Positions 41,939 through 63,884 of a DNA stretch of 64,000 nt are shown here, piece by piece. Under the pieces are notes generated by a model. The model worked only from the letters and a program-made list of their open reading frames with translations. It made no database searches and was not told the origin of the DNA. The position numbers were made by a program, and so were the translations under genes. The DNA is from a virus: IMG/VR virus record IMGVR_UViG_3300028025_000092. The stretch is one strand, 5' to 3'. The stretch's first letter is position 1; each line of letters begins with the position of its first letter.

Positions 41939-42469
41939 ATGTCAAAATTATCCGAGGTAGACAAAAGGCTAATCAATGGTGTAATATCATCTATTGATTG
42001 GGATCAAATAGCTAAGTTTTACAAGATACTCAACAAAAAAATAGGGTATGAACAGGTAAAAATCAAGGGCATAACTAGAAACGATAAAATCACAACAGAT
42101 TCTCTACAAGAGGAATTATTAAGGGTTTTAGAATACGTTATAGACAACGACCTTCCTGAGATGTCATATGGTCCCTGGTTAATTATTTGGACAAATGGAG
42201 AATGGGAGATAATGGAAAGCATCCAAGCAGGTTTAGAAGAAAGCCAAGAAGAAATACAAATTCCTATTATGGAATCTAAGCTTCAGGTTCATTTTATACC
42301 CCAGACTGTTACCATGAAGGAAGACGTTGATCTCCCACAGGATTTTTTCGAGATGGACGATACCGTTATTTTAGAGGGGAGGCTCAAGACGTGCATTGAA
42401 CAAGAAGATTATGTTTTGGCTGGCAAGATAAGAGACGTAATTGAAGAACTTAACAAAAGAAAGAAATGA
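41939..42469 (+). CDS. Hypothetical protein with C-terminal UVR (UvrB/UvrC) coiled-coil motif
   Basis: LKTCIEQEDYVLAGKIRDVIEEL. Confidence 0.7.
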   Translation: MSKLSEVDKRLINGVISSIDWDQIAKFYKILNKKIGYEQVKIKGITRNDKITTDSLQEELLRVLEYVIDNDLPEMSYGPWLIIWTNGEWEIMESIQAGLEESQEEIQIPIMESKLQVHFIPQTVTMKEDVDLPQDFFEMDDTVILEGRLKTCIEQEDYVLAGKIRDVIEELNKRKK

Positions 42470-43389
42470 AGATTAAAAAGCTAAACGAACAATTTTCCCA
42501 ATCATTCTCCGGGGATGGATTTAATAGTTCTAATGGGGTTTTTAAGGTTAGATATAAAGCCTATGACGACCTATCCCAGTCTAAAGGGAGGGAAATTCAC
42601 CCCTATGATCACGTTAATGGCGAGGAATTTCAGGTAGGGGATTTAGTGTTGGTTAATTTAGGTTCTAAAACCAAAAAGAAAATGAAAGCCGAGGTGGTAT
42701 CTTCTTTTAGAACTGAAGACGGAAAAACAACTAAGTTTAAGGTTAAAAGTACTGCTACTAATAAAATCTATGCAGTTCCTGTTTATGCTATTGAATTTTT
42801 ACAAGATAATGGTAACGCGATAACAAAAAAGGGTGCAAATGGAAGCACCATAGCGAATAAAGAAAAATGGTTAAACTCGCTAAAGTATAATAATGGTAAT
42901 TTTATTTGGGGATCATTAGAATCTAAAAAACTTAATATGAAATCAGATATGCTTCTTAAAGAGGGTGACTCGGTAATGGAAAGACCAAGCATAATAGACC
43001 CTGCTATGAGTGTGGTTTTAATAGATGATACACATCCAGATTATGCAACACACATAGAAAATTTTAAAAAACTAGGATCAATCTATACCATCCCAGAAAA
43101 TAAATCAATCTATATCCACAAAAAAGATCCATCTTTTGCAAAATTTAATGATAATCACCTAGTGGTAATAGAGGCTGTAGAAATAGCAAAAATTCTTTCT
43201 AATAAAAAAGACGTTATGGATGAAAAGTATAATGACGTTTTAGCTGCTCAGATTTTAAGAAACAAAGGTCTTAAAGAAGCGTATAAGATAATAGCTTCTA
43301 ATTTTCTTAAGAAATATGGGACATCATACGGAGAATGCGCCGATGAATTTATTCCTTCAATGAAGCAGTATTTACCAGAAAGAAAATAA
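42466..43389 (+). CDS. Hypothetical protein: SH3/KOW-like domain plus degenerate metallopeptidase-like domain
   Basis: FQVGDLVLV...; HLVVIEAVEIAK...DEKYNDVLA. Confidence 0.6.
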   Translation: MKIKKLNEQFSQSFSGDGFNSSNGVFKVRYKAYDDLSQSKGREIHPYDHVNGEEFQVGDLVLVNLGSKTKKKMKAEVVSSFRTEDGKTTKFKVKSTATNKIYAVPVYAIEFLQDNGNAITKKGANGSTIANKEKWLNSLKYNNGNFIWGSLESKKLNMKSDMLLKEGDSVMERPSIIDPAMSVVLIDDTHPDYATHIENFKKLGSIYTIPENKSIYIHKKDPSFAKFNDNHLVVIEAVEIAKILSNKKDVMDEKYNDVLAAQILRNKGLKEAYKIIASNFLKKYGTSYGECADEFIPSMKQYLPERK

Positions 43390-43391
43390 TA

Positions 43392-44099
43392 ATGTCGATA
43401 GAGAGAATAAGGAGAAGAATACCGATGCCTGAGGATTTCCCAAAAAAATCACAGGATTTAGTCCCCCCGCAAAAATATACAAACAGACCCATAGAATCCT
43501 ATAAACAATTTATAGGACTTCACAAAGAACAATCATTTGTGATATGTGCGTGTGGATCTTCGTTAAACGATTATACAGATTTTAACAATCATATAACTAT
43601 AGGTGTTAATGATTCAGGCACTAAGGTGTGGTGCAAATATCTCGTTGTAGTTAATGAGCCTAAAACATTTAAATGGAACAGATGGCCATCAGTTAGAATG
43701 AATAACTCTGATTTTGTTTTTACCCATCTCGCTGATTTACCGATTGACAATCCAGATGGAAGAAGAATAGTTGTAAATCTTGGAAAATACGAAGGACTGG
43801 ATCTTGATAATTATGGATCTATAGATTACACAACAAATTCTCCTTACATGGCTATTATTATAGCTTATCAAATGGGTGCTAGAAAAATAGCTTTAGTTGG
43901 TGTTGATTTTACCCCCAACCATTTTTTTGCAGAGACTGGAGATCATATTATTATGAGGGAAATAGAAAGGGTAAAAGAGCAATATTCAAAATTAGGAAGG
44001 GCCTTGATCGAAAAAGGAATTAGAATTGCTAACCTCTCACAGACAAGCTTAATTGAATCCTGGCCCAAAATGACCCTGGATCAATTTGAAACTCTCTAA
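43392..44099 (+). CDS. Maf/DUF115-like (GT29/GT42-related) glycosyltransferase
   Basis: FVICACGSSL, ITIGVND, MAIIIAYQMGARKIALVGVDF, IANLS. Confidence 0.7.
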   Translation: MSIERIRRRIPMPEDFPKKSQDLVPPQKYTNRPIESYKQFIGLHKEQSFVICACGSSLNDYTDFNNHITIGVNDSGTKVWCKYLVVVNEPKTFKWNRWPSVRMNNSDFVFTHLADLPIDNPDGRRIVVNLGKYEGLDLDNYGSIDYTTNSPYMAIIIAYQMGARKIALVGVDFTPNHFFAETGDHIIMREIERVKEQYSKLGRALIEKGIRIANLSQTSLIESWPKMTLDQFETL

Positions 44100-44114
44100 G
44101 ATTTATTAGTTATA

Positions 44115-44891
44115 ATGGAGATGAGTAACCAAAAAACGGGGATTTTAGTAAGATTCCCATTAGTACAGAAAAAAGGTAAAAAACCAGGATATCAGGTCTC
44201 CTTTGGAGATTTCATGTTAAGGAAAATTAGCGAGGGATTAAATATTGGATATAAATGTTTTGTTTTTGAAATAACAGACGACGATTTTGATTCATTAGAA
44301 TTTAACGTGACCGAGAGCGCAGGGGAATCCCTTAATAATTATATTAATAATCTAGGAGTTAGAGTAGCTTTATACATCAAGGGGAAAAAATACCTAACCT
44401 CAGATTCAGAGGCTGAAATTTTATCTGCACACTCCCAGATCGTATCATGCTTAGATTTTATAAAAAAACTTGACATAAAGGATTTTCAAGAAGTTCCTAT
44501 TATTCTGCACATAGGGGGTGCAAAGGGCGATAGAAGAGGAACCATGGAGGATTTTTGTAAAAAGGTAGAATGTTGGTTTCATGAGGACGATATTAAAAGA
44601 CTTGCAGTGGTAAATGATGAAAAACCAAGTTTATTCTCTGTAAAAGACTTACTTCCTGGTGTTTTTTATAGGATTAAAATACCCATAGTTTTTAGATCGA
44701 CATCATACCCAACAAATCAAGGTAACCTAACACTTAACGAATCTTTATTTTTAGCAGCATCCACCTGGAAAAGAACTGTAAATCCTATATTTTTATATCT
44801 TCCAGGTAATACCAATATCGGAAGCGAAGAGACTAGACCATTTGGTCTTGAGCTTGATTTTGTCTTCGATAATAGACTCCCAGAGCCTTAG
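44115..44891 (+). CDS. uvsE: UV-damage endonuclease (UvsE/UVDE) homolog with degenerate active site
   Basis: IILHIGGAKGD, RLAVVNDEKPSLFSVKDL, IPIVF, LAASTW; metal ligands substituted. Confidence 0.7.
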   Translation: MEMSNQKTGILVRFPLVQKKGKKPGYQVSFGDFMLRKISEGLNIGYKCFVFEITDDDFDSLEFNVTESAGESLNNYINNLGVRVALYIKGKKYLTSDSEAEILSAHSQIVSCLDFIKKLDIKDFQEVPIILHIGGAKGDRRGTMEDFCKKVECWFHEDDIKRLAVVNDEKPSLFSVKDLLPGVFYRIKIPIVFRSTSYPTNQGNLTLNESLFLAASTWKRTVNPIFLYLPGNTNIGSEETRPFGLELDFVFDNRLPEP

Positions 44892-44917
44892 CATTTTATT
44901 CTTCCGAGGATTTCTTC

Positions 44918-44925
44918 TATATTTG
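44918..44925 (+). promoter_or_regulatory. Bacteroidota-type -7 element TATATTTG
   Basis: 17 nt before the nei ATG. Confidence 0.6.
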
Positions 44926-44942
44926 TAAAAACAAATACAAAT

Positions 44943-45761
44943 ATGCCAGAAATCAGCGAAGTAAGAATTATGTCAGAGTTTATCAACAGGGTTTCTTCTG
45001 ACGTTGATTATTTTGTTGGGATATCTAAAAATCCTGAACACAAAAGCAAAACAAGTCTAGTTATCCCATTTAAGCATTTTCAGATTAAAGCCTTTTCAAG
45101 AGGTAAAGAATTAATGCTTAGGTTTGTAGTGCTGGATTTTTCATACGAATATTCGGATTTTCAATCCTTAGTTTTTACCATGGGAATGAGCGGCAATTGG
45201 AATTACTCAAAAACAATATTCGAAGTACCTAAACACACGCATCTTATGATTATGGATTGCCACGGAGGTGTATTAGGAATGAATGATGTCAGAAGATTTG
45301 CTCGTTGGGATTGGAGAGGATGGAACGAAGAAAGGGGACACGATCCGGTTCAAGAGACAGAACCTTTTAAGAGAGAGATATTAAATAACCTAACAAAAGA
45401 TCGGATCTTTCAAAAGCCTATTTACGAGGTGATGATGAATCAAAAATATTTTAATGGTGTTGGAAATTATTTAAGAGCTGAGATTCTTGGTAGAATAGAT
45501 TTAGATCCAAGATTATCCGCCAGAGATTATATCACGGAAGCAGGAGATAAATTTTTTAATATAACAGAAAAAATAATTGTTGAATCATACGAACTGGGGG
45601 GAGGACAATTTAAAGATTGGTACAATCAGGCGGACCTAGAAAAGAAGAAGAGCAAAGAATTCCAAGCATGGATGCAATTCTATTTTAACAGAGAAAGATG
45701 TGAACCGATTAAAGATAAACAGGATCGTAATTTTTGGATCGATAAAAAATGGCTAATATGA
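44943..45761 (+). CDS. nei: Fpg/Nei family DNA glycosylase/AP lyase, NEIL1-like (zincless finger)
   Basis: MPE..E catalytic N-terminus, RGKEL, GMSG, DVRRFARW, H2TH NQKYFNGVGNYLRAEIL; no CxxC zinc finger. Confidence 0.92.
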   Translation: MPEISEVRIMSEFINRVSSDVDYFVGISKNPEHKSKTSLVIPFKHFQIKAFSRGKELMLRFVVLDFSYEYSDFQSLVFTMGMSGNWNYSKTIFEVPKHTHLMIMDCHGGVLGMNDVRRFARWDWRGWNEERGHDPVQETEPFKREILNNLTKDRIFQKPIYEVMMNQKYFNGVGNYLRAEILGRIDLDPRLSARDYITEAGDKFFNITEKIIVESYELGGGQFKDWYNQADLEKKKSKEFQAWMQFYFNRERCEPIKDKQDRNFWIDKKWLI

Positions 45762-46468: not shown

Positions 46469-46476
46469 GATATATA
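46469..46476 (+). promoter_or_regulatory. Late promoter box GATATATA
   Basis: 15 nt before GTG 46492. Confidence 0.7.
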
Positions 46477-46491: not shown

Positions 46492-47238
46492 GTGGCTAGT
46501 CGCATCAAAAATTTTAATGATTGGATTTTAAATGAGGATCAATTCTACCAAAAAGAATTGAATACTGCATTTTGGCAGGATCAACAGTTTGATCCTTCTA
46601 TCAGAGAAAAACTTCTTCAGATAGCAGAGGAATTTTATGCCACCTTTAAATTGGAAGTTCCTATTAGTGATATCCAATTAACTGGATCCCTTGCAAATTA
46701 TAACTGGACCCCAAAATCAGATCTCGATGTCCACGTTTTAACAGACTTTTCTAAGATCAATCCGGATATAGCTTTAGTTAAAAAAGGCCTAGACGGGCAA
46801 AGATTCGTTTGGAATCTACGTCATAACATAGTTATCAGAGGGTATGACGTTGAGCTTTATCTGCAGGATATTAACGAGCCTCACGTTGCTTCTGGTCTTT
46901 TCTCATTATTAAATAACGAATGGATCAGGGTTCCTAAGTACAATCCGCCACAAATAGACGAAAGAGATGTTCAGCTAAAATTTGAGGGTATTGTTAATGA
47001 TATCAATCAATTAAACGTACAACTTCAAAACCCCGCCCCAGAAATGGATCCGAGAGATCTTTATAATCATGCAGAAAAAGTCAAATCCAAGATCATGAAG
47101 ATGAGAAAGGACGGGCTTGCAGAGAGAGGGGAATTTTCGGTAGAGAATCTAGTCTTTAAAAAGTTAAGAAACGAAGGATATATACAGAATCTGATAGATC
47201 TAATATCAAGATCCTACGAAAAAATATATAACGAATAA
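46492..47238 (+). CDS. Pol-beta superfamily nucleotidyltransferase
   Basis: TGSLANYNW...SDLDVH (GS...DxD) and third acid in GYDVELY; N-terminal IKNFNDWILNE. Confidence 0.8.
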   Translation: MASRIKNFNDWILNEDQFYQKELNTAFWQDQQFDPSIREKLLQIAEEFYATFKLEVPISDIQLTGSLANYNWTPKSDLDVHVLTDFSKINPDIALVKKGLDGQRFVWNLRHNIVIRGYDVELYLQDINEPHVASGLFSLLNNEWIRVPKYNPPQIDERDVQLKFEGIVNDINQLNVQLQNPAPEMDPRDLYNHAEKVKSKIMKMRKDGLAERGEFSVENLVFKKLRNEGYIQNLIDLISRSYEKIYNE

Positions 47239-47249: not shown

Positions 47250-49829
47250 ATGTCGGGAATTTACAAAGGATATAATCCAATCTACGAATCTCTTAGAAAA
47301 GATCTATTTGAAGCGGAAAACAAAATTGACACTGATGCTCTTTTAAGAGCTATTTACGATACGTTTGTTAATACCCTAATGAATGGATCAGATGAAGCGG
47401 TAAGAACCCCAGACGGGTTTAAACTATTCATGGATAAGACCCTTCAGTCTAGTTCAATAGACGTTCTTAAGAGCGAATTGAATAATAAGATAGATGAACT
47501 TGCTAAACTTGATAAAAATCAAGCTGAGCCATTAAATCAAACTAAATCATATCTTAACACATTATTCGACACATTAAAAAATGCTATAGGTGAAGATGCC
47601 AAAGCAATAAAGAGTGCTATAGATAAAATGTCAGAATTTACAGGAACTACTATTGGTGGTTTACAAGCTGTTAAAACACAAATGCAACAGAATGAAAGCT
47701 TAACATCTAGATACGTTTCAGAGCAATCCGAGACAAGAACAGGGGAAGAAGCAAATTCAGAAGAAGGTGAAAATGATAAATGGTATTTCCAATTATCTAA
47801 AAACGTGTTAGATACCGCTACTTCTTTTGCAGGAGAAACAACAGCTGCTCTTTCTAATAAATCTTTATCCGGTGACTCTGGTATTCAAAAATTTGCACAG
47901 GACGGACAGGATTATCTATCAAAAGCTAAGGCTTTGTCTGTTACTGGCGGAAGAAAGGGATTTATCGTTATGGGCAAGGTTAAAACTGCTAGCGGTGATA
48001 TAAAAGGAAAGGATTATAGAATTCAAGTTAAAAATCTTATTAATGATATAATTAGACAGAGAGAAGAATTTCAAAAATTAAAGTATAGACTTTCAAATAT
48101 TCCAGCACCACCACAAGTGGTTACTGTTTGTCCTACTGGTATGACCTTTGATGCAGCTAAAAATGCTTGCGTGTATGTTAATATTCCAGCACCAGTCGTA
48201 AATCAGGGAGGTGAAGGTCCTCAACCACCAAAACCACCAAAACCAACTCCACCAGTTCCAACAACAGGATGTCAATTTCCTATTCAGATTACAACAAAGA
48301 AATGTTCTGAGGTTGCACAACTACAGGGCAAGTTGATGAGTATGGGAGGATGTATTGCTGATATACTTAATACAGCAGGAGGAGCAGATGGTAAATACGG
48401 CAATAAAACTGCTAAATTAGCAAATATAGCATATGCATATCTTACTAAATCATCAGCTTTTAATCCTACTGGAGACTTAACACAGGACATCTATAATACA
48501 ATAATGGCAGGAGGTCAAATGACATATCAAGCTCCTGCAAAAGAATCTTTAGAAATTAAAGCAGATTCTAAAATAGTAGAGAATAAAATATTTGAAAGAG
48601 AATATAAAACCGGTATGCCTGTGCTATCATTCTCGGATTTTTCTGAGGTACTATCAGAAGCAGGATACGTCATCGAGGAAGATGTTGCAACTAGCGGTAA
48701 ATCCATCGCAGATTGTATTTGTTCAACTTATGCTTCTGGCCAAATGGATACAGCATGTTTTAGTAACATAGTTCCTGTTCCAAATCCAACAGGAGGAACA
48801 GGCGGAACCGGCGGAACCGGAGCAACAGGAGCAACAGGAGCAACTGGTGGTGGGGAAGAAATACCAACAAGAGATGATTGGAAAGGTCTTAAGTATGTAA
48901 ATACTGGGTCTTATCCTATTTCCTTTGATGAGAGTCTTTTAAGCTTCTGGTCTAAAGAGGTAGCAATCACAGCATTAAGCTTTGCTATCCCAGGGTCTGG
49001 TTATCTGTTAAAAGCAGGATCAACAGGTCTTAGATCATTAGGGGTTAAAGCAGCAACTAAAGTAGGAGCTCAAAAACTTGCAACAAGAATTGCAGGTAAA
49101 GCGGTGACAACAGCAATTGCTAAGGGGATCACAAAGAAAACAGCAGCTCAAGCTTTAAGTGGTCTTACTAGACAATACTTTATGAAATACGGAGCTATTC
49201 CTATTGCAAAAAGAACAGCAGCTGGCTTAATCGGCGGTGCAGTTGGTGGTGCAGCATTAGACTTCTTATCAGGAAGAGACACTTTTGTTATTACAACAGT
49301 AGAAGGATTTATAGAAAGAAATCTATTGCTTGGAATAGCAAAAGGATTGGTGAATACCCTGGATGGATATGTTAGTGATGATGATTGGGCATCAATCTCT
49401 CAAACCCTTGCAGTAATTAAAGGAGGTTGGACGGTAGATGACAGCGATAAACAAGTATCTGCGTGGGGAGAACTTAAAAGGCTTTATGTTGAATCCGAGG
49501 GAGAAGATCTTGTAGCAGATATACAAAGTGTTAAAGCTAAAATGGGAGACGTTGAAGGATTCCCTAATATGAAATCAGTTTCCCCGCTATCAAGTTTAAA
49601 CGATGTTGATTGGGATCTTGCTAAAGCAGAAACGCTAAGATTTGTTGATGTACTAGAAAGAAACGAGAGTACTCTATCACAGAATTTAGATAAACTTCCA
49701 GGATCATATGTTACTGCTCACGTAGAAGGTAATTATCAAGAAATTGATGAGAATGGAGAAGAAGTTGGAGGAGAAGGTGGAGAAGAAGGAGGAGAGAAAG
49801 ACGATTCTCCAAAAAAATCAACCTACTAA
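47250..49829 (+). CDS. Large putative internal/ejection protein with peptidoglycan-binding domain
   Basis: EVAQLQGKL...GADGKYGNKT, Pro-rich linker, GGTGATG linker, Gly/Ala hydrophobic helices. Confidence 0.65.
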   Translation: MSGIYKGYNPIYESLRKDLFEAENKIDTDALLRAIYDTFVNTLMNGSDEAVRTPDGFKLFMDKTLQSSSIDVLKSELNNKIDELAKLDKNQAEPLNQTKSYLNTLFDTLKNAIGEDAKAIKSAIDKMSEFTGTTIGGLQAVKTQMQQNESLTSRYVSEQSETRTGEEANSEEGENDKWYFQLSKNVLDTATSFAGETTAALSNKSLSGDSGIQKFAQDGQDYLSKAKALSVTGGRKGFIVMGKVKTASGDIKGKDYRIQVKNLINDIIRQREEFQKLKYRLSNIPAPPQVVTVCPTGMTFDAAKNACVYVNIPAPVVNQGGEGPQPPKPPKPTPPVPTTGCQFPIQITTKKCSEVAQLQGKLMSMGGCIADILNTAGGADGKYGNKTAKLANIAYAYLTKSSAFNPTGDLTQDIYNTIMAGGQMTYQAPAKESLEIKADSKIVENKIFEREYKTGMPVLSFSDFSEVLSEAGYVIEEDVATSGKSIADCICSTYASGQMDTACFSNIVPVPNPTGGTGGTGGTGATGATGATGGGEEIPTRDDWKGLKYVNTGSYPISFDESLLSFWSKEVAITALSFAIPGSGYLLKAGSTGLRSLGVKAATKVGAQKLATRIAGKAVTTAIAKGITKKTAAQALSGLTRQYFMKYGAIPIAKRTAAGLIGGAVGGAALDFLSGRDTFVITTVEGFIERNLLLGIAKGLVNTLDGYVSDDDWASISQTLAVIKGGWTVDDSDKQVSAWGELKRLYVESEGEDLVADIQSVKAKMGDVEGFPNMKSVSPLSSLNDVDWDLAKAETLRFVDVLERNESTLSQNLDKLPGSYVTAHVEGNYQEIDENGEEVGGEGGEEGGEKDDSPKKSTY

Positions 49830-49868: not shown

Positions 49869-51950
49869 ATGAGTCTTAACCCCGAATTCGTTTTAGTCTT
49901 GGAAAAATCTTCACACAATCTGAAGACCGAGAAAAGTGGTAACGAATACTATCTGGAAGGTATTGCAGCAGTTTTTGGTAAAGAAAACTCTAATCAAAGA
50001 ATATATGAGGAAAGAGAATATCTTCCTCATCTTCAATATTTAAAAGAAAAGATCGAACAAAAAAGATTGGTAGGTGAGTTAGACCATCCTAAGGAATTTG
50101 ACGTTTCCCTTAAAAACATTTCTCACCTAGTTGAGGAATTAGCATACAATCAAGGGGACAGAACCTTAAGAATTAAAGTAAAGCTTTTAGACACACCAGC
50201 AGGTAAAATTGCTAAATCTTTAGTTGATGCAGGTATTCCTGTTTCTATTTCTTCAAGAGCAGCAGGTAACGTAATGGAAAACAAAAAAGTACAGATTAAA
50301 AAGATCTTTACTTATGATCTAGTAGCTGATCCTGGATTCGAAAATGCACAATTAGAAAGAGTTTATGAAAGTCTTGGTTACAATTTAGAAGAAAAAAGTA
50401 TGGCTGAATCCATCCTAAAGGGTCTTCCTCTTATGAACGAAAGTTTAGGATTAGAAAATGATTCTAATTTTAAGATATATAGAATTAACGATCAAGAAAA
50501 AATACAAAAGCTTCTAGATAAGGAGCCAAATAAGAGTTTAATCATGGAAAATAATTTCGTTACAGCGGAAGAAATGAACGGATATTCTAGACTAATCAAA
50601 AAAGAAATGGATACTATTAAAGGATCCATTGAGTCTTTGAAGGGTGTTAAAGAATCTTCCAAAATAACAGAATCTTCCTCTCTTGAAGAGAGAGTATTAA
50701 AATTAGAAAAGTATGCTGATTATTTAGCAGAGAATTTAGAGGCTTCTATTAAGTATGGTGAATACCTAGCAGAAAACCTAGAAGACTCTGTTTCTTACTC
50801 AAAGTATTTAGCAGAAAATCTAGACAAGTCTATATCTTATGGAAAATATCTAGCAGAGCATCTAGACAATAACATTTCTTATTCCGAATATATTGCAGAA
50901 AATGTAGACACGAACATGACAGCAGTTAAAGGTTTAACAGAAAAAGTTGATCAATCTATTGCTTATGCAGAATATGTAGGAGAGAACGTAGATAAAAACA
51001 TTAGATACAGTGAGTATCTAGCAGAAAACCTAGATAAGAACATTTCTTACTCTGAGTACTTAGCAGAAAATGTTGACAAGAACATTTCTTACTCTGAGTA
51101 TTTAGCAGAAAACTTAGATAAAGGTTTAGCTTATTCTGAATACCTAGCAGAAAACCTAGACAAGAACATTTCTTACTCTGAGTACTTAGCAGAAAACTTA
51201 GATAAAGGTTTAGCTTATTCTGACTACCTAGGAGAAAATTTAGATAAGACTGTACATTACAGCGAATATATTGCAGAAAAACTATCTAACAATATTAGTT
51301 ATGCAGAATACATTGCAGAATCTGTAAATGCATCTTCAGGAACTAAAGAAGTTAAAGAAGCAGTAGTTAAAGCAGTTTCCGAGAGCGCAAACACTTCAGG
51401 ATTTGCAGGTAACTACACCGGAATTTCCAACAAAATCGACGATTTATTAAATACTGTCAGTAAACAAAAGACAGATGAAATAGCAGAAAATAAGAACTAT
51501 CCTTTCTTAAAGCTTATGGGCGAACAAGGACAAAGAGAATTCCTATCACTGCACGAAGGCCAAAAACAAAAGGTCGCAAAATCCTTAAACGAAAACAATT
51601 ATTCATCCGAAAAAGAAGTAATTGAACTTATGGGTAAAGCCTTGGTTGAACAAAATCAATCCGGCGAAAAATTCCTAGATCTAATGCCAGAAAAATATAG
51701 AACTTCATGGGAAATGATGACAGAGTCACAAAAGGCTTCAGTTATCGCTCAAAGCAAGTTTCATAAATTGGACACCCCTTATCAAATCCAGAATTTCTGG
51801 GCTACCAGAGGTATTTCAGTTACAAAGGCAAATATCGAAAGAATAGACGAATCCCAAAATCAAACAATCTCAGCCCCTCAGCCAAAAGGAGTTTCTAGAG
51901 AATATCTAGATAATCTTTCAGAAGCTTTAGGAGCTAGATTTAAAAAATAA
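49869..51950 (+). CDS. gp21: Prohead protease (gp21) fused to repeat-containing scaffold/core domain
   Basis: YLEGI...NSNQRIY, GELDHP, ISH, LDTPAGKI, ISSRAAG, TYDLVADPGFENA; then 14-aa repeats. Confidence 0.92.
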   Translation: MSLNPEFVLVLEKSSHNLKTEKSGNEYYLEGIAAVFGKENSNQRIYEEREYLPHLQYLKEKIEQKRLVGELDHPKEFDVSLKNISHLVEELAYNQGDRTLRIKVKLLDTPAGKIAKSLVDAGIPVSISSRAAGNVMENKKVQIKKIFTYDLVADPGFENAQLERVYESLGYNLEEKSMAESILKGLPLMNESLGLENDSNFKIYRINDQEKIQKLLDKEPNKSLIMENNFVTAEEMNGYSRLIKKEMDTIKGSIESLKGVKESSKITESSSLEERVLKLEKYADYLAENLEASIKYGEYLAENLEDSVSYSKYLAENLDKSISYGKYLAEHLDNNISYSEYIAENVDTNMTAVKGLTEKVDQSIAYAEYVGENVDKNIRYSEYLAENLDKNISYSEYLAENVDKNISYSEYLAENLDKGLAYSEYLAENLDKNISYSEYLAENLDKGLAYSDYLGENLDKTVHYSEYIAEKLSNNISYAEYIAESVNASSGTKEVKEAVVKAVSESANTSGFAGNYTGISNKIDDLLNTVSKQKTDEIAENKNYPFLKLMGEQGQREFLSLHEGQKQKVAKSLNENNYSSEKEVIELMGKALVEQNQSGEKFLDLMPEKYRTSWEMMTESQKASVIAQSKFHKLDTPYQIQNFWATRGISVTKANIERIDESQNQTISAPQPKGVSREYLDNLSEALGARFKK
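50474..50481 (+). promoter_or_regulatory. Intragenic late promoter box GATATATA upstream of in-frame ATG 50544
   Basis: Exact motif at the protease/scaffold boundary. Confidence 0.5.
50710..51325 (+). repeat. 42-bp (14-aa) tandem repeat YSEYLAENLDKNIS
   Basis: About 13 degenerate copies in the scaffold domain. Confidence 0.92.
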
Positions 51951-51964: not shown

Positions 51965-53722
51965 ATGCAACTTATCAATCAACATGAAATCTATGATACC
52001 TGGGCACCAATCTTGGAAAGCAAAACAGGTATTCAAGAGAGAGGTAAATTAGACTGGTTAACTAAATACTGTCATTACCACTCATTAAACGAATCTGCCG
52101 GAGCGTATAACTCTTTAGGCGTATTAAACGGTATGGGCCAAGTATCTCCTGCTTCTAACGTAGGTTTAAACGGCGGTCCTGCTGGATTCTATGCAGGCGG
52201 ATCTTATTCTGGAACTGGTCTTGGTTCTGGCGATAAATTCCCTTCTCTTTTACCTTTAGCTATTCAAGTAGCTGCTAAAACAGTAGGTTTTGATATCGTT
52301 CCAGTTATCCCAATGAGCGGTCCTACAGGCGTATTATCATACTTAGACTATGTTTACGCAGGTGGTAAATTATCTGGTACTGACTCTGTATCTCCATACA
52401 CAGCAAACACTCCAGATCTAATCAAAGTTCCAACAACAACAGCTTCTCCTGTTACTGGTTTAACAGTAGGATCTACTTACCTTTTAGGTGCTTCTGGTCT
52501 TTCTTCAACAAAAGATTTAGACTCTGCAGGTGTAGGTGCTTTAGTAGCTGGTAAATTCGTTGGTAACTCAAGAATTGATGGCTTCCCAATTTTCCAAGTA
52601 GTAGCAATCACAACTGGTTTCTCAATTGCTGCAGCTATCGACGCAGACGCAGTTATCTACTCTGGTTCATTCGTAACCTCAACAAACGTTTACACAATCT
52701 CTGCTACAGTAGGTTATGCAAATGGTGCTGCTCAATTAGTTAAAACTTTAGAAGATCACGTACAAGGATTTACTGGTCTTGGAACTGCTAACGACGGTAC
52801 ATGGTCTGGTCCTTATGTAGACGGTACTAAAGCTTACGATCCAATGTCAAGAGGAACTGCTGAAAGCACTTACTTCAAATCATTAGGTCTTTCTACATTT
52901 ACTAAATTTGTAGAAGCTGGTACTTTCCAAGTTGCTGCTTCTGTTACAACTGAGCAAATCCAAGATTTAAACAAGCAATTCGGTATCGACGTAGTTTCTA
53001 TGATCGAGAACGCACTTGTTAATGAGGTTTCTCAGTCTATCAACAAGCACATCTTATCTAGAGCATTTGCTTTAGGATGGTCTAACCACTATGAATTTGC
53101 AAACACCGAATTAGGTGGAGCATCTTCTGCTTCTCTAAACATCAACTTAAAAATTGGTGCTGGTGGAGCTTCAACCGCATCTTTCATCGGTAAGGACAAT
53201 GGATCTTTAACAATCTATACTCCTGGCGATATCGCTACAGGCGGATACGAGAACCAATCAACTGTACAAAGAAGATTATTCTCAAGAATCTTGGCTGCTG
53301 CTAACGTAGTAGCAAACAGAGGAAGAAGAGGACCTGCTAACTTTATTGTTACTAACGCTCAAGTAGCTTCTGCTTTACAAGATATCTCTCAATTCACATT
53401 TGCTCCTTTCACAAACACGTTAACTCAAAATAACGGTACTTTATATCCAGTTGGTTCAATCGCTGGTATGACCGTTTATGTTGATCAAAACATGTCTTTC
53501 GGCGATACGAGAGTATTGGTTGGAAGAAAAGGTGCTGATGACGAACCAGGTATGAAATTTATGCCTTACATGATGGCTGAGTCAATTCAGACTATCTCTG
53601 AAGGTACAATGTCACCTAAAATTGCAGTTAAGTCTAGATACTCTTTAGTAGAGGCTGGACATCATCCTCAAACGATGTACTTATGCTTTAAAGCTATAGT
53701 GCCTGCAACTGGTATCGCTTAA
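51965..53722 (+). CDS. gp23: Major capsid protein
   Basis: WAPILE, VPVIPMSGPTG, EQIQDL..QFGID, NEVSQSINK, RGRRGPANFIVTNAQVASAL, FMPY, PKIAVKSRY. Confidence 0.95.
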   Translation: MQLINQHEIYDTWAPILESKTGIQERGKLDWLTKYCHYHSLNESAGAYNSLGVLNGMGQVSPASNVGLNGGPAGFYAGGSYSGTGLGSGDKFPSLLPLAIQVAAKTVGFDIVPVIPMSGPTGVLSYLDYVYAGGKLSGTDSVSPYTANTPDLIKVPTTTASPVTGLTVGSTYLLGASGLSSTKDLDSAGVGALVAGKFVGNSRIDGFPIFQVVAITTGFSIAAAIDADAVIYSGSFVTSTNVYTISATVGYANGAAQLVKTLEDHVQGFTGLGTANDGTWSGPYVDGTKAYDPMSRGTAESTYFKSLGLSTFTKFVEAGTFQVAASVTTEQIQDLNKQFGIDVVSMIENALVNEVSQSINKHILSRAFALGWSNHYEFANTELGGASSASLNINLKIGAGGASTASFIGKDNGSLTIYTPGDIATGGYENQSTVQRRLFSRILAAANVVANRGRRGPANFIVTNAQVASALQDISQFTFAPFTNTLTQNNGTLYPVGSIAGMTVYVDQNMSFGDTRVLVGRKGADDEPGMKFMPYMMAESIQTISEGTMSPKIAVKSRYSLVEAGHHPQTMYLCFKAIVPATGIA

Positions 53723-53800: not shown

Positions 53801-53808
53801 GATATATA
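53801..53808 (+). promoter_or_regulatory. Late promoter box GATATATA
   Basis: 16 nt before ATG 53825. Confidence 0.7.
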
Positions 53809-53824: not shown

Positions 53825-54943
53825 ATGAGCATTATTAACGATTTTAGATTCTATAATGATTGTAAGAATTCCCTTTTAGAATCTTTCGGTGATGTTGAAA
53901 TAGCAAAAAACAAATTATCACATAAGGGCTACGAAAATAACGAAGATTTAGAGGAAACCCTAATTGCAATTAAAGAATCATTAGGGGATAAAATTATTAA
54001 CTTCTTTTCAAAGAATCTAGGAGGAGATATTTCTAAGGTATCAAAAATCTTACAGGATATGAAATCCGAAGAAATTAAATTCATTACCGATGAGCACGAA
54101 TCAGAATCTAAGTTTTATAAGCTAAGTGCAGCTTTATCCCAGCTTAAAAAGGACAAAGCAGATTCTAGTGAAGTCACACAATATGCTGATAAGTTAAATA
54201 AGCTAAAGAAGTTTATTAAAGATTTAATGTCATCACATAATTCAATCATGGATGATCTAGAAAAACAAGTTAACATTATTACTAAAAAGAATAATAGAAA
54301 AGCTGACTATTACAATCTTAAAAGAGCGGAGGATTCAGTGGAGACTAAAAAATTAAGAGCTGATTATAAAAAGAAGCTTATTACACAGGCAGAGGATTCT
54401 GAATACCTGGATGATATCCAAAAGATTCTAGGTAATCCTAAAGATGCACAAAAAGATCTAGATGCTGCAAAAGAAGTATTAGCAAAAGAGAAGGATAAAA
54501 TAGGAGCTGCAGGAGAGACATCTTCTTTGGTTAAACCAGATCTTGACGAAAAAAATGAAGATTTTTATAAGGAAATAAGAGCAACAGTTAAGGATATAGA
54601 AGACTATACAAAAAAATCTTTAAGCAAGTTCGAAAATAAGGAAGAAGCTAAAAAGATAAACAGAGGAACCTTTAATATGATGCAAAAAGCATTTGATACA
54701 AAGGTAAGAAGAGCATCCAATGTAATAGAGACATTTAAAAGTAAGATCTCGCAAGTTAACTCAACTTCTGATAATGAAACATCATCTGAGACAAATAAAG
54801 CTATAACCAATCTTTTAAATTTAGAGAGACAGGTAAGTAACCTTAAATATTTCACCTGGCCAGCGTCTGATTTAGAAGTTCAGAAAGAAACGATTCTTGC
54901 TATCATAGGTAAGGTTAATAAACAAATAGAAGTAGCTGCATAG
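53825..54943 (+). CDS. Helical putative internal head protein (paralog of next ORF)
   Basis: Late box; LLE/IKE motifs; shared segments with 54948-55787. Confidence 0.7.
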   Translation: MSIINDFRFYNDCKNSLLESFGDVEIAKNKLSHKGYENNEDLEETLIAIKESLGDKIINFFSKNLGGDISKVSKILQDMKSEEIKFITDEHESESKFYKLSAALSQLKKDKADSSEVTQYADKLNKLKKFIKDLMSSHNSIMDDLEKQVNIITKKNNRKADYYNLKRAEDSVETKKLRADYKKKLITQAEDSEYLDDIQKILGNPKDAQKDLDAAKEVLAKEKDKIGAAGETSSLVKPDLDEKNEDFYKEIRATVKDIEDYTKKSLSKFENKEEAKKINRGTFNMMQKAFDTKVRRASNVIETFKSKISQVNSTSDNETSSETNKAITNLLNLERQVSNLKYFTWPASDLEVQKETILAIIGKVNKQIEVAA

Positions 54944-54947: not shown

Positions 54948-55787
54948 ATGAAAAAGTATTCAGAATTCATAGCAGAAAACGTTAATGAAGGATTTATAAA
55001 AAATCTTATAGGAGGAATTACATCATTTCTAAGAGGTGATAAAAACTCGATTTTGGCCAACATAGAAAAAATGAAGGAGGTTGAAAAAGATTTTATAAAT
55101 AAATCTGATGAACTTAGTTATGATATATTCTATGCAGAAACCAAAAGAGGTCAAACATCAGATATTACCGCTTCTGCTAAACAAAAATCACTAATGAGTA
55201 AAAGAGCATTGGATGCTCTAAGAATATCGAAAGATGGTGAAATGAATCTTCTAGTAAAAACTATTTCTAGAATATGCAAAGATAACCCAAAACTTATAGA
55301 TTTTTATAATCAGGAAAAAGCATCAGCTGATGTTGAAATAGCACAATATGCTTATGAGAAGGCCAAAAAATTCAAAGACTCCCAATATGAGAATGAGTTT
55401 TATGACCAGTGGAAAAATCTAGAGACTTCTGCCAAAAAAATGAAATATGATTCACCAAATCTGGATGATGATACAATAGGGGAGAATAATGGTATGTGGG
55501 ATCTTTCCCTAAGAGAGTTTACGAATCAAATAATGGGTTTACCCAAAGCTGATTTATTAGATCTTGTAGAGGATGGTTCGGATCTAAGATGGAAATTAGC
55601 AGATGATCTAAGAATCAAAGACAGTAGTCTAAAGGAATTCAAAACAAGATCCTACAGGAGCGGAGATATGGCAAGCTATAATTTCACAAAAGAAAAAATT
55701 GCGGAAATAAAAAATAAATACAGGGTAGCCATACAATCTATTGATAATAAAGTGTCAATAATAAAGAGTCGACTTCGGAATATATAA
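54948..55787 (+). CDS. Putative internal head protein with T4 IP-like capsid-targeting N-terminus
   Basis: Begins MKKYSEFIAE, versus T4 IPII/IPIII MKTYQEFIAE. Confidence 0.75.
   Translation: MKKYSEFIAENVNEGFIKNLIGGITSFLRGDKNSILANIEKMKEVEKDFINKSDELSYDIFYAETKRGQTSDITASAKQKSLMSKRALDALRISKDGEMNLLVKTISRICKDNPKLIDFYNQEKASADVEIAQYAYEKAKKFKDSQYENEFYDQWKNLETSAKKMKYDSPNLDDDTIGENNGMWDLSLREFTNQIMGLPKADLLDLVEDGSDLRWKLADDLRIKDSSLKEFKTRSYRSGDMASYNFTKEKIAEIKNKYRVAIQSIDNKVSIIKSRLRNI
55779..55786 (+). promoter_or_regulatory. Late promoter variant AATATATA
   Basis: Upstream of ATG 55810. Confidence 0.45.
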
Positions 55788-55809: not shown

Positions 55810-58065
55810 ATGCAGAATCCATTATTTGAAAGTTTGATAAGAAAAGTTCAAACCTACGAAAATCCACAGATGTCAGAGCAAACAACACCTCCAAAAGGAA
55901 CAGTATTTTCTGATTTCGTTAAATCCCTTGCACAGATTGGTACAAAATTAGTTGACCAGTATATAGCAGCAATTAAGTCGTACCCTGATACAAAAATTAA
56001 AAAGGAATACGAAAAAGGACTTCCCGATAAATTGGCAGCTATTCTTGCTTCTGTAGATAAAACTAAAACTGTTGGTATTCAGGTAGATTCACTTTTTAAA
56101 GCAGTTAAAGCAGAAGCAACCGCTTTCTTTAAACTAGGAGAGGGTGACACTGAAGTTGTTAAATTTTTAAAGCCTTGGAGAGAATCATTTAGAGCTGGAT
56201 TTAATGCTTATCAACAAGCAGTAAATTCTGCAATGGAATATGTTAAAAAACAGGAAGATGCAAATACCGCAAAAATGTCAGATGCTGAATATGAAATGAT
56301 ATCAAAAGCAGTGAGTGCTTCTATTGACGGGTATAATAAATCAACAAAGGTAGAATCAACACTAAAGGATGATTGGGGAAGTAATGAAAGTTATTCATAT
56401 AAAAGTGCTTCTATGGAGATGAACGAGTCTAGTCCAGTATTAGATCAATTAATTTCAAATAAGATTTGTGTTGATTTTAACACATACAACAAGATAATTA
56501 ATGAAGCCAAAGAAGATAGAGTAGCAAGAAGAGCAGCAAAAGCATCCAGAATAAACGGAGAAAATTTAGGTGCTCAGATTGATGCTGTACTTTCTGTAAT
56601 TGGTTCAAGATTATCTGATCCAGCTAAAGCTAAGTTTAAATCATTAGCTATGAAAGATCAGTTTATGTCAATAGCTACCAACCTATCTCAAATTCAAACT
56701 GAATTGGCAATTGATGATAAAGAATTAAAGAATGTTAATTTTGGTGAGATTGATAAACAAATATCAAACTTAGAAACACTGTTTGCTGATAAGAAGAAAG
56801 CTTTCGATGAGGCGTATGCTGGCGAAGAGAAAAATTCAAGAAGCTTTAAGACTCTAGAGGTAGCAACACCAGAGGTAACTAAATTTCTTTCAGATGGGGA
56901 CGTTCAGTTTGGTCAACTTTCTATTCTTGCACAAAAAGCAGCTAATCTGGCAGCAGAAGAAGCTAAGAAGCCAAAACCTGCTACAGGCGGAACGGGCGGA
57001 ACAGGAGCAACTGGGGGAACGGGAGCTACAGGAGCAGCACCAGGAGTAATTAAACTTACCTCCTCACTTAAAAGAGGTGCTAAGGGGGATCAAGTTAAGG
57101 CAGTTCAGGAATTGATCATAAAAAAAATGGGTACTAAATTAAAAGATGTACCTCAGTATAAGAAGTTTGCTGGATATGGAGCAGATGGTAAATTTGGCGG
57201 ATCTACAGAGTCGTTAATACCAGCATTAAAATCAGGTCTTGGTCTAACCGACACATCATCAGAGATCACACAGGAGTTAGTTGATAAATTAGCAGCAGTT
57301 AAAGAATCTTTTGTTTTTGAGCAGGAGTTTAATATGGATGCTTTTAATAAAACAATCAGCGGTGGAGGTGGATCATCTTCAGCATCATCAGGATCTGGGG
57401 AAGGAAAAAAACCGGGTGCTTTTAATTGTATTAGAACTGCAGATAACACAACTAAAATCTCAGGGGGTAAAGCAATAATAGAAAGATCAAACAAAAACAA
57501 GCACACTTTTAATGCTGATGGAACTTATTCTTATTTCTCCGCAGGAAAAAACGAAACAATGAAAGGAACATGGAAATGTACCCCGGAGGGATTTGAGGCT
57601 TATACGGATTCCGATAAGGACACGTTCTACGGAAGACCTGGGGTAATGGATTGGAAAAGTAACATGGACAATGCCGAGAAAGCAAAAATGGATGCAGCAA
57701 CTAAGGCAGCTGCAGATCTTCAGGTTAAGGCAGGTGAGATATGTAAAAAGATTATAGTTAAGATGTCAGGAACAAAGGAAAGGGAAGAAGAAGCTGCTGC
57801 GATATTTAGAGATGAAGTGACAACGGTGGAAATGTTTAAAGCTGTTGAGACCTTTTGGAATAATAAATGGTGGCCTTCCCAAGTACAGTTACAAAGTAGT
57901 CCACTCTATTTTGAGAAAAAATCAGTGGACGAAATAACAAAGATTATGGACTATAAAGCTGGAAAGAAGGGATTTAGTTTGAGATATTTAATTGAATTTT
58001 TCTTCGATACTGACCAAATAGCCTTGCTAAATGGGTATCTTCCAGCAGGTGTGAAGAAGTTCTAA
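55810..58065 (+). CDS. Large putative internal/ejection protein with peptidoglycan-binding domain
   Basis: LKRGAKGDQVKAVQELI...GADGKFGGST; the same GGTGGTGATG linker as 47250-49829. Confidence 0.7.
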   Translation: MQNPLFESLIRKVQTYENPQMSEQTTPPKGTVFSDFVKSLAQIGTKLVDQYIAAIKSYPDTKIKKEYEKGLPDKLAAILASVDKTKTVGIQVDSLFKAVKAEATAFFKLGEGDTEVVKFLKPWRESFRAGFNAYQQAVNSAMEYVKKQEDANTAKMSDAEYEMISKAVSASIDGYNKSTKVESTLKDDWGSNESYSYKSASMEMNESSPVLDQLISNKICVDFNTYNKIINEAKEDRVARRAAKASRINGENLGAQIDAVLSVIGSRLSDPAKAKFKSLAMKDQFMSIATNLSQIQTELAIDDKELKNVNFGEIDKQISNLETLFADKKKAFDEAYAGEEKNSRSFKTLEVATPEVTKFLSDGDVQFGQLSILAQKAANLAAEEAKKPKPATGGTGGTGATGGTGATGAAPGVIKLTSSLKRGAKGDQVKAVQELIIKKMGTKLKDVPQYKKFAGYGADGKFGGSTESLIPALKSGLGLTDTSSEITQELVDKLAAVKESFVFEQEFNMDAFNKTISGGGGSSSASSGSGEGKKPGAFNCIRTADNTTKISGGKAIIERSNKNKHTFNADGTYSYFSAGKNETMKGTWKCTPEGFEAYTDSDKDTFYGRPGVMDWKSNMDNAEKAKMDAATKAAADLQVKAGEICKKIIVKMSGTKEREEEAAAIFRDEVTTVEMFKAVETFWNNKWWPSQVQLQSSPLYFEKKSVDEITKIMDYKAGKKGFSLRYLIEFFFDTDQIALLNGYLPAGVKKF

Positions 58066-61594: not shown

Positions 61595-61604
61595 CTTGGG
61601 AAAC

Positions 61605-61649: not shown

Positions 61650-62192
61650 TTAGTTAAAAAATTGATTAAAAGAGGGATTTGCAATAGATTCTTGCTCTTC
61701 TTCTTCCATGTCTTCTTCCATGTTCTCTTCCATGTCCTCTTCCATGTTCTCTTCCATGTCTTCGTCTTCCTCTTCTGTTAATTCTTCACCATCAAACTCG
61801 TCTTCGTCTTCTTCATCTATGTTATACTCATCGGCGATTGATTGAAATTCATCTTCATCCATTTCGTAGATATTAGATTCTTCTTGTTCTTCTTCCTCGT
61901 TATCGGAGTCTTCGTCAAATTCCATATCATCAGATTCGGTGTCGTCGTCATCAGATTCTATGTCACCATCCTCAGATTCCATATCGAAAGATCCCTCTGA
62001 TCCTTCGGTTTCCTCATTTTCATCTTCAGTTTCATCATCAGATTCTATAGAGTCCGCACCACCATCAGAGTCCATTTCTGTGTCCATATCCATCTCATCA
62101 TCGGATTCAATTTCAGTGTTATTGTCTTGGTCAAGTGTTCCTTCAGTGTATTGTTTAGAAAACTCCTCAAAACTTAAGATCTTTTTTTCCAT
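61650..62192 (-). CDS. Hyper-acidic (Asp/Glu-rich) protein with capsid-targeting-like N-terminus
   Basis: MEKKILSFEEF...; roughly half the residues are D/E; MEE(N/D) 12-bp repeats; own late box and terminator. Confidence 0.8.
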   Translation of the reverse strand: MEKKILSFEEFSKQYTEGTLDQDNNTEIESDDEMDMDTEMDSDGGADSIESDDETEDENEETEGSEGSFDMESEDGDIESDDDDTESDDMEFDEDSDNEEEEQEESNIYEMDEDEFQSIADEYNIDEEDEDEFDGEELTEEEDEDMEENMEEDMEENMEEDMEEEEQESIANPSFNQFFN

Positions 62193-62210: not shown

Positions 62211-62218
62211 TATATATC
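62211..62218 (-). promoter_or_regulatory. Late promoter box GATATATA (minus strand)
   Basis: 18 nt before start 62192. Confidence 0.7.
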
Positions 62219-62239: not shown

Positions 62240-62494
62240 CTATTCGCCGGGTTCTCCCATAGAAGCAGCACTTCCTGATTCAACAGCACCATGCCCTGGA
62301 TAATCTATCTTAGATTGATGTTTAAATATTGCATCACCATATCCTACATACTCATAAGGCTTTTCCAGCTTTATTTCGTGGAAAGGAGATCTATCCTCTT
62401 TGCTCATATTTTTAGGATTCCACGGATCGCTTATAACTTTTAGAAATTCTTTGAATTCTAAAATCTCCCTCTTTTTAACGTCTTTCTGATGCAT
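62240..62494 (-). CDS. Small hypothetical protein (ILEFKEFL motif)
   Basis: 84 aa, co-oriented with its neighbours. Confidence 0.7.
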   Translation of the reverse strand: MHQKDVKKREILEFKEFLKVISDPWNPKNMSKEDRSPFHEIKLEKPYEYVGYGDAIFKHQSKIDYPGHGAVESGSAASMGEPGE

Positions 62495-62508
62495 ATCTTT
62501 TTTAATTT

Positions 62509-63201
62509 TTAGTTTAAGCCTAATAGACTCATTATTCCTCCGCCCATTCCAGTATCCCCAGTTTGAGCTTCCGGTTTAGCAGCTTTAGCTATATCTTTTT
62601 CAGAAAATTTACCACCTCCAAATATATCTTTGAATGATGTACCTTCCCCACATACTACTCCTTCTATCTTTTTATTTATCATCACTGAGAATTCAGTAGT
62701 ATTTAAATAGTTAGTCGCGGTTTCTCTAACCGTTGCTGCTGCCGTTCCTAGAATGCCGCTATTCATGTTAATATCCAGTCCTAATCCTCTAGCCAGTATA
62801 TCTATTGCTTTTTCTTCAAGGGTCTCTTTGAGTCCATCCGCTATTGCCTGAACCCAATATTTGCATGATCCTTCTCCAAAGTAATCTCCTATTTTTGTAA
62901 ATTGAATTTGTTCAACCACGTTCTTTGCAAATTCAGTAAAGAATTCATTATTATCTGGTAGACCCATTTTTTGAAGTAACCATCCTGCAGCATAGTTTTT
63001 CATTCTGTCGGTAAAACCGTCAGAAAGGGTTGAACCTAAGCTTTTTATAAGATCCCAAATTCCTTCATTAATTTCTTCTACAGTGTTTCCCTTAGACACC
63101 ATATCATTATAATGGGCTTCTAATCCCTCAACAAGTCTCACGTATTGTTCGTTGTTAATTGATTCGTCTAATTTGAACTGAGAATATTTGATAACTTTCA
63201 T
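62509..63201 (-). CDS. Putative internal head protein
   Basis: MKVIKYSQFKLDE N-terminus; INEGIWDLIK; late box. Confidence 0.75.
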   Translation of the reverse strand: MKVIKYSQFKLDESINNEQYVRLVEGLEAHYNDMVSKGNTVEEINEGIWDLIKSLGSTLSDGFTDRMKNYAAGWLLQKMGLPDNNEFFTEFAKNVVEQIQFTKIGDYFGEGSCKYWVQAIADGLKETLEEKAIDILARGLGLDINMNSGILGTAAATVRETATNYLNTTEFSVMINKKIEGVVCGEGTSFKDIFGGGKFSEKDIAKAAKPEAQTGDTGMGGGIMSLLGLN

Positions 63202-63218
63202 TCCTACATTCTTTTTAT

Positions 63219-63257
63219 TATATATCTCTCCCTAATAATAAAACCCCTAGATATATA
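63219..63257. promoter_or_regulatory. Divergent pair of late boxes (minus 63219-63226, plus 63250-63257)
   Basis: TATATATC and GATATATA back to back between divergent genes. Confidence 0.7.
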
Positions 63258-63278
63258 GACATAATTAAAACCCAAGCA

Positions 63279-63884
63279 TTGAAACACCTATTCTCTTATA
63301 AAGATCTATTCGAAAGTACCTCTGCAGGATCACAGGATAGGGGTACGGTGGATTTATCCACTTTTAAATTTGCGATCAATTATGATCCTAGGCTTGGTTA
63401 CACCAAAAAAGATTTCTCAATGGATCTTATTGAGATCTATAAGGGTATGTCAAAAAGGGAAAGATCTGAATTAATGGATGTGATTTTTAAATCAGGTGGG
63501 GTGTTTAGGATTTCAGAGATATCTGAACTTTCCCAAGAAATCGTAGATGAAATCATAAAAAATGTAGAAACCCTTCTGGACAGTAAATCTGTTTATAAAA
63601 TGCAGGTACTCCCTGATGGGTATATTCTTTGTTATGAGGGGTTAAAACATAAAGGAAGGATTTGTGATGTCTATTATTCCCCTTCGGATGAAAAAGTTAA
63701 AATATCATACACTGACACATATCCAGAAATGGAGACTGTTACGATTTCAGCGGAATCTTTTAATCCTTCCTCGGTAAACATCGAAACTGATGATTTCTTA
63801 TCAACAAAAAATAAATGCGATAATTTTATAGGAACAAACCAAATTATAGCATCGAAAGATAGTCCCGATAATTATTCACTATAA
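63279..63884 (+). CDS. Hypothetical protein with capsid-targeting-like N-terminus
   Basis: TTG start, MKHLFSYKDLFES. Confidence 0.7.
   Translation: MKHLFSYKDLFESTSAGSQDRGTVDLSTFKFAINYDPRLGYTKKDFSMDLIEIYKGMSKRERSELMDVIFKSGGVFRISEISELSQEIVDEIIKNVETLLDSKSVYKMQVLPDGYILCYEGLKHKGRICDVYYSPSDEKVKISYTDTYPEMETVTISAESFNPSSVNIETDDFLSTKNKCDNFIGTNQIIASKDSPDNYSL

Follow-up and report, generated by a model that had tools for sequence, protein, structure and literature searches.

The stretch of DNA analysed here, called the window below, comprises 64,000 nucleotides of the IMG/VR virus record IMGVR_UViG_3300028025_000092. Its source is an uncultured jumbo phage, the hosts of which are probably Bacteroidota and which is a distant relative of the Lak megaphages. 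The window has a G + C content of 34% and carries almost all of its genes on the same strand. A fused gene for prohead protease and scaffold is followed by the gene of a Gp23-family major capsid protein, and on both sides of this head module lie genes whose products start with short leaders that resemble the capsid-targeting sequence of phage T4 (Table 1). These leaders are the subject of the present analysis. Genes are named below by the lower of their two coordinates, with (-) for the minus strand.

The protease domain covers residues 16-210 of the open reading frame (ORF) starting at 49869 and matches the T4 gene 21 region with 29% identity (E 1e-7). The capsid protein has 39-43% identity to its counterparts in Lak megaphages and in the uncultured phage LR756500, and about 30% identity to the capsid proteins of Tenacibaculum and Flavobacterium jumbo phages. 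Near its N-terminus it features the site W-A-P-I-L-E followed by Ser (residues 13-19), which is conserved in all relatives.

The leaders were described with the pattern [ILVM]xx[FYL]xx[FWY], starting within the first ten residues. This pattern fits 46492, 53825, 54948, 61650(-), 62509(-) and 63279, in all of which it starts at residues 1-5; it is also present in 62240(-), but further from the N-terminus. Among the 60 proteins of the window 11 carry the motif, compared to 3.4 ± 1.7 in composition-preserving shuffles, and a stricter version was found in five of them (0.8 ± 0.9 in such shuffles). None of the replication and repair genes of the window features the motif. An earlier note on this DNA had regarded eleven N-termini as examples of one motif. 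The strings it quoted are all encoded where it placed them, and about six of the genes do share a motif beyond chance, while the rest are looser and heterogeneous. Two of these, 47250 and 55810, carry a different leader instead, N-P-[ILV]-[FY]-E-S.

Table 1 Leaders, GATATATA boxes, head genes and other identifiable genes of the window
Feature	Position	Strand	Remarks
Leader, residues 1-15, ends ILNE	46492..46536	+	Gene 46492-47238, 248-residue Pol-beta-fold nucleotidyltransferase, GTG start; strong
Leader, residues 1-19, ends LLE then Ser	53825..53881	+	Gene 53825-54943, 372-residue protein, first gene past the capsid gene; strong
Leader, residues 1-14, MKKYSEFIAENVNE	54948..54989	+	Gene 54948-55787, 279-residue helical protein; strong
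Leader, residues 1-13, ends LDE then Ser	63163..63201	-	Gene 62509-63201, 230-residue protein; strong
Leader, residues 1-12, ends LFE then Ser	63279..63314	+	Gene 63279-63884, 201-residue acidic protein, TTG start; probable
Leader-like N-terminus, ILSFEEF core	62142..62192	-	Gene 61650-62192, 180-residue very acidic protein; partial, conserved aliphatic-x-Glu absent downstream
Protein with hydrophobic motif at residues 11-17 and without downstream cut site	62240..62494	-	84 residues; partial
Protein starting IKKLNE, L-N-E within motif	42466..43389	+	307 residues; uncertain member
Second leader type, residues 1-13, ends NPIYE then Ser	47250..47288	+	Gene 47250-49829, 859-residue low-complexity hydrophobic protein, directly upstream of protease
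Second leader type, residues 1-7, NPLFE then Ser	55810..55830	+	Gene 55810-58065, 751-residue protein
GATATATA box	46469..46476	+	Late-promoter-like
GATATATA boxes	49843, 50474-50481, 53801-53808, 63250-63257	+	
GATATATA boxes	61587, 62211-62218, 63219-63226	-	
Prohead protease-scaffold fusion	49869..51950	+	phrog_207, Pfam S77 and S80
Major capsid protein, Gp23 family	51965..53722	+	PF07068, E 3e-39
Large terminase	5563-7371		
Tail sheath	7462-10812		
Two tandem portal paralogues	31652-33289 and 33296-34987		
Tube paralogues and tail fibres			
Ligase and clamp loader			Before the head module
SbcC-like gene			

A megablast search of the region revealed no close DNA relatives in the phage collection. 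In IMG/VR, 230 contigs are related to the window, and a set of 80 related loci (capsid gene ± 10 kb) was used for comparison by calling ORFs and clustering the proteins. Two sequences served as proxies for the whole genome, namely G001, a colinear contig of 244,850 bp with about 76% nucleotide identity to the window, and G003, a complete genome of 373,467 bp with terminal repeats.

Leaders of the strong group persist even in orthologues from relatives with as little as 64% capsid identity. Across orthologue families, motif retention has a bimodal distribution, with values of 0.55-1.0 in leader families and 0-0.16 in other families. Among distinct orthologues, it amounts to 1.0 for 62240 (30 of 30), 0.88 for 46492 (43 orthologues), 0.82 for 62509 (34 orthologues), 0.68 for 54948 and 0.55 for 53825 (47 orthologues), and three small families not present in the window range from 0.62 to 1.0. 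The low values of 0-0.16 were obtained for the capsid, protease, Fpg-like, UvdE-like, AsnB-like, P-loop and RimK-like proteins and the exonucleases; shuffles yielded 0.03-0.14.

A putative cut site, defined as [LIVMF]xE within 13 residues after the aromatic residue, follows the motif in 147 of the 152 motif-bearing members of six families (25/26 for 53825, 32/32 for 54948, 38/38 for 46492, 24/28 for 62509, and 20/20 and 8/8 for two further families). The predicted leaders of these families have median lengths of 12-18 residues (range 9-29), with a median of 18 in the 53825 family. The motif mostly begins with residue 1 or 4, and L/F/Y is found at its position 4 and F/Y/W at its position 7. The codons at these two positions vary (TTT, TTC, TAT, TAC, TGG, TTA and CTA), indicating selection on the residue class and not on an RNA element. 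In the alignment of the 54948 family (41 sequences, mean identity 39%, pairwise identities down to 16%), a single column is invariant, that of Glu14, after which cleavage is predicted. The cut site is nearly absent after the motif in three families, those of 62240 (1/30) and 42466 (1/9) and one starting with MARIYDY (0/10), which are therefore not full members. The earlier note had counted the first two of them among its examples.

Outside the strong group, the members differ in their support. The leader of 63279 is unchanged in the 76%-identical relative G001, but its support is weaker because few orthologues were found. For 61650, the N-terminus is kept in positional orthologues although the bodies of the proteins are beyond BLAST similarity. 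The motif of 62240, a protein with a weak HMG-box-like match, is probably part of the fold and not a removable leader. In 42466, the N-terminus is conserved, yet the strict motif is present in only 24% of the orthologues.

The second leader type, N-P-[ILV]-[FY]-E-[SQ], is conserved in the 47250 family and in two other families, and the shorter pattern [LIV][LIFYV]E[SQ] is enriched at the N-termini of the relatives (3.8% vs 1.2%, p 1.4e-5). The 47250 protein is a candidate core or ejection protein. It features Pro-rich and Gly/Thr-rich low-complexity stretches as well as a long hydrophobic segment rich in Ala and Gly. In more distant relatives, an unrelated protein of 830-920 residues is encoded at its position.

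The earlier note had proposed a genome-wide test of whether motif and GATATATA box go together, and in both relatives the motif is specific to N-termini and linked to the box. With the stricter pattern, 42 of the 525 proteins of G003 start with the motif, compared to 1.3% of internal 10-residue windows and 7.7 ± 2.8 in composition-preserving shuffles. For G001, the numbers are 25 of 273 proteins, 1.1% of internal windows and 4.2 ± 2.0 in shuffles. The motif thus starts 8-9% of the proteins in these two relatives, with z values of about 10-12 against the shuffles. Its enrichment over internal windows is approximately 8-fold (p ~1e-15). The great majority of the G003 motif genes (37 of 42) are located outside the head region in which the pattern was devised. 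The leader is also portable, as 36 carriers trimmed of their first 25 residues still fall into 30 families without BLAST relationship. Two other phages were used as controls. In the Tenacibaculum phage PTm1, which is similarly AT-rich and encodes a protease-scaffold fusion, no enrichment was observed (10/304 vs 5.6 ± 2.4 in shuffles). T4 likewise showed no overall enrichment (7/277 vs 3.9 ± 2.0); its motif proteins nevertheless include IPI, IPII and IPIII. An expectation-maximisation motif search on the N-termini of G001 was overfitted, its top width-7 consensus strings having aliphatic-aromatic-Glu-Ser as a common feature, and explicit patterns with shuffle and internal-window controls were therefore used. 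A position-specific scoring matrix from the 54948 family alone was too narrow (6 matches vs 1 expected at a score of at least 6).

The GATATATA box, which the earlier note had described upstream of most of its examples or at the head of their operons, occurs 19 times in the window (5.0 ± 2.2 in shuffles), and its strand is in all cases that of the gene downstream. It is located 23-31 nucleotides before the starts of structural and late-looking genes, and 23-29 nucleotides upstream of 46492, 49869, 53825, 60085(-), 61650(-), 62509(-) and 63279. The genes 54948, 62240 and 42466 are internal to operons that start with such a box. It is likewise found before the genes for sheath, portal, protease and fibres, and we infer from the sequence that the box is a late promoter. 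In G003, it was found within 60 nucleotides upstream of 20 of the 42 motif genes, compared to 39 of the 483 others (odds ratio 10.3, p 3.6e-10). The same distance in G001 gave 8 of 25 motif genes and 22 of 248 others (p 0.0024).

The scaffold part of the fusion contains about 14 tandem units of 14 residues with the consensus ISYSEYLAENLDKN, which span residues 281-483 (approximately 50709-51317) and were recognised in the translation and with Tandem Repeats Finder. The array is kept throughout the clade, with a nearly invariant repeat, and co-variation of leader and repeat within the clade was uninformative for this reason. The core of the scaffold unit is nearly identical to the leader of 54948, with a BLOSUM score of 37, whereas none of 2,174 internal window blocks reaches 24. 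In G003, four N-termini score at least 24 against the scaffold repeat core, compared to 0.23 expected. This resemblance suggests that the leader could dock by imitating a scaffold unit. Since every unit contains L/I-A-E, the protease could also cut the scaffold into short peptides. An internal GATATATA box (50474-50481) is located about 70 nucleotides upstream of an in-frame Met (50544, MENNFVTAEE). All 44 of 44 distinct relatives have kept both, as well as the rare ATA Ile codon; this is consistent with a nested, separately expressed scaffold gene. In the phage LR756500 (462 kb), whose capsid protein is the closest in GenBank, a protease-scaffold fusion is likewise encoded at 18052-19950. Its 14-residue repeats are degenerate, and this architecture thus predates the clade of the window. 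The T4 scaffold protein gp22 (gene 22) starts with MLKEQLIAEA and has the core Q-x-aliphatic/aromatic-I-A-E-A in common with the T4 leader, an echo of the resemblance between leader and scaffold described here.

As the earlier note held, enzymes are among the carriers. The product of 46492 is a nucleotidyltransferase with Pol-beta fold, which features a GS...SDLDVH motif and a borderline match to Pfam NTP_transf_2. Its Foldseek matches are all CD-NTases, ANT enzymes or TENT-like proteins. In the AlphaFold model, residues 1-16 have a predicted local distance difference test score (pLDDT) below 50, compared to about 90 for the body of the protein. The model of 54948 is a long helical bundle, from which residues 1-27 are unpacked (pLDDT below 50, compared to near 90 for the body), with a short helix at residues 4-10. 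A fold search with this model gave no match below E 0.2 among predicted viral structures, and tblastn gave no match to 54948 among phages. Carriers elsewhere in the relatives include a protein with a peptidoglycan-binding domain, an OmpA-domain protein, an AAA+ MoxR-like ATPase and, in G003 only, a RimK-like ligase. The peptidoglycan-binding carriers would suit a role as ejection proteins.

The RimK-like protein of the window had been listed as a motif carrier in the earlier note. It was rejected as such, the motif not being kept at the RimK N-termini of the clade of the window. This protein (60085-61569, minus strand) shows a C-terminal Zn_protease-like match. The RimK-like ATP-grasp protein of G003 (217114-218577, minus strand) has a full leader-like start, VLNFVSFLNE followed by Ser.

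In T4, a capsid-targeting sequence is present on the internal proteins IPI, IPII and IPIII, as well as on the Alt propeptide, and is removed by the prohead protease gp21. The first ten residues of IPIII suffice for packaging; residues 4 and 7 mainly provide targeting and residues 8 and 10 direct processing, and the T4 leaders are 10-19 residues long (PMC9026906). The start of 54948, MKKYSEFIAE, is identical in 7 of 10 positions to MKTYQEFIAE of IPII and IPIII, including all mapped positions (Tyr4, Phe7, Ile8 and Glu10). The two systems share an N-terminal leader of similar length, with hydrophobic or aromatic targeting positions and an aliphatic-x-Glu, which is carried by unrelated, fast-evolving proteins. 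The genes of these proteins are late in T4 and, to judge from the box, putatively late in the window. Both phages also encode members of the gp21 protease and gp23 capsid protein families. W-x-P-aliphatic-L-E is found in both capsid proteins (W-A-P-I-L-E in the window, K-W-K-P-L-L-E-G in T4 gp23), and both proteases have an aliphatic-x-Glu near residues 9-12.

There are also differences from T4. Instead of being identical, the leaders of the window clade are degenerate, with a cut site preceded by a spacer of variable length. The carriers amount to about 8% of the predicted proteome of the relatives, compared to three or four T4 proteins. They are mostly acidic, include enzyme folds, and their bodies have no sequence homology to T4 internal proteins. 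In the window, protease and scaffold are fused into one ORF, and the scaffold part is made up of about 14 leader-like repeats.

Head and ejection proteins of phiKZ-like giant phages also have propeptides, the proteases being gp175 in phiKZ and gp245 in SPN3US. Many head proteins of these phages are processed at a Glu, and their propeptides are believed to direct them into the prohead (PMC5694885). The proteases belong to a related family, as shown by the Pfam S80 match of the window protease. However, the propeptides of these phages are mostly longer than 100 residues and are cut at A/S/G-x-E (PMC5694885), whereas the leaders of the window have 12-19 residues and an aliphatic residue at P3. 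A nested or fused arrangement of protease and then scaffold in one ORF is also known from the lambda C/Nu3 type and from the 'prohead core scaffolding protein and protease' of PTm1. Unlike PTm1, in which the repeat sequence differs and no matching leader family is present, the window encodes a regular 14-residue array with a leader-like unit. The head region of PTm1 is not syntenic for the carrier genes. The combination of 'capsid targeting' with huge phages or megaphages was not found in the papers searched.

Based on these results, we consider it probable, at roughly 60%, that the leaders are capsid-targeting and processing propeptides of the T4 type. A leader of 12-19 residues would consist of a short amphipathic helix, hydrophobic or aromatic at every third position (i, i+3 and i+6), and of the aliphatic-x-Glu behind it. 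It would dock the protein onto the scaffold core during prohead assembly, the head protease would then cut after the Glu, and the mature protein would remain within the head. As the scaffold is a chain of about 14 leader-like units, the leader may work by co-assembly with the scaffold repeats. All these steps, from binding and cleavage to packaging and a possible ejection into the host, are inferred, and our confidence in delivery into the host is lower than that in targeting and cleavage. The window contains at least four and probably six leader genes that are not otherwise related, and two large proteins carry the second leader type. The earlier note had read these genes as a T4-like system of packaged and injected cargo. 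What stands of this is that the leaders are T4-like, specific to N-termini, portable, unpacked in the AlphaFold models and adjoined by genes of the gp21 and gp23 families. The membership is narrower, and the number of candidate packaged proteins in the window is nearer four to six than the 'about ten' proposed.

Several observations weigh against the T4-type interpretation. The homologues are all unnamed (hypothetical) metagenomic proteins, and most carriers are acidic, in contrast to T4, whose internal proteins are basic. Similarity to orthologues is not uniformly higher at the N-terminus than in the body, and the leaders vary in length. Chance alone is expected to give about 4-8 motif matches per genome, genes were called simply as longest ORFs, and the motif patterns were written after inspection of the data, from which the part of G003 beyond the head region is nevertheless largely independent. 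The N-termini of PTm1 do not resemble its own scaffold repeat, which is of different sequence, and the scaffold-mimicry idea therefore did not generalise. Finally, about half of the genome-wide motif genes lack a nearby aliphatic-x-Glu.

This last point would fit an amphipathic N-terminal motif with a role outside the head, such as docking to another late complex or to the membrane, a chaperone or degradation signal, or a preference in translation initiation. The 62240 and MARIYDY families, which keep the motif without a cut site, point in the same direction, and the N-termini of an AT-rich genome are biased towards Lys, Asn, Ile, Phe and Tyr. Against a role outside the head stand the z values of 7-12 in the composition-preserving shuffles and the absence of enrichment in the AT-rich PTm1, and the codons vary while the residue class is kept. 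Since the motif also agrees with the mapped targeting positions of T4 and is followed by a conserved Glu in six families, we regard such a role as improbable. Hardly more probable, and still unlikely in our view, is a reading in which a protease removes the leaders as propeptides from ordinary structural or assembly components of the head (such as core, vertex, decoration or scaffold-accessory proteins), and in which they are not tags of delivered cargo. The strongest carriers, 53825 and 54948, are encoded directly past the capsid gene, the latter is a long helical bundle like scaffold and core proteins, and the capsid protein and the protease have N-terminal aliphatic-x-Glu sites of their own, yet are not cargo. 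However, the leader is also found on a nucleotidyltransferase, an AAA+ ATPase and the RimK-like ligase of G003, and on about 30 unrelated families scattered across the genome. The breadth of these families after trimming, together with the enrichment over internal windows and the association with the promoter, also disfavours an origin by chance or shared ancestry, i.e. a few paralogous families with similar first helices. Although 53825 and 54948 join one BLAST cluster and orthologues in related contigs are non-independent observations, we consider such an origin very improbable.

The T4-type interpretation can be extended to a model that we put forward only tentatively and judge to be rather doubtful. 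The scaffold would be a polymer of address-tag units, and a single N-terminal unit would lead to co-assembly. About 20-35 proteins (~8% of the genes) would be loaded in this way, including the nucleotidyltransferase, the AAA+ ATPase, peptidoglycan-binding proteins and, in some relatives, the RimK-like ligase. If true, the set of proteins that uncultured huge phages package and probably inject would become readable from sequence. Even if the leaders simply work as in T4, they would provide a list, obtained from sequence only, of proteins inside the head that are possibly delivered to the host, including enzymes of unknown target. A tag resembling the unit of a repeat scaffold suggests a simple physical basis of targeting and might be exploited to fill capsids with foreign proteins. 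As a principle, targeting by such leaders is established for T4, and specialists predict its extension to relatives, the T4 literature anticipating relatives that use such leaders for varied cargo (PMC9026906).

Some further features of the window were observed. Genes for UvdE-like and Fpg/Nei-like proteins and a PolB-type 3'-5' exonuclease (44115-46453) are co-directional with the head genes, and all are without a leader. Both portal paralogues match phrog_213 (E 6e-65 for the first and 1e-61 for the second) and have similar N-termini (MAGF...); a second portal copy is unusual. Two tail-tube-like genes are also arranged as tandem paralogues (10853-11425 and 11438-12016), and the N-termini of their products are nearly identical (MAGLPH...).

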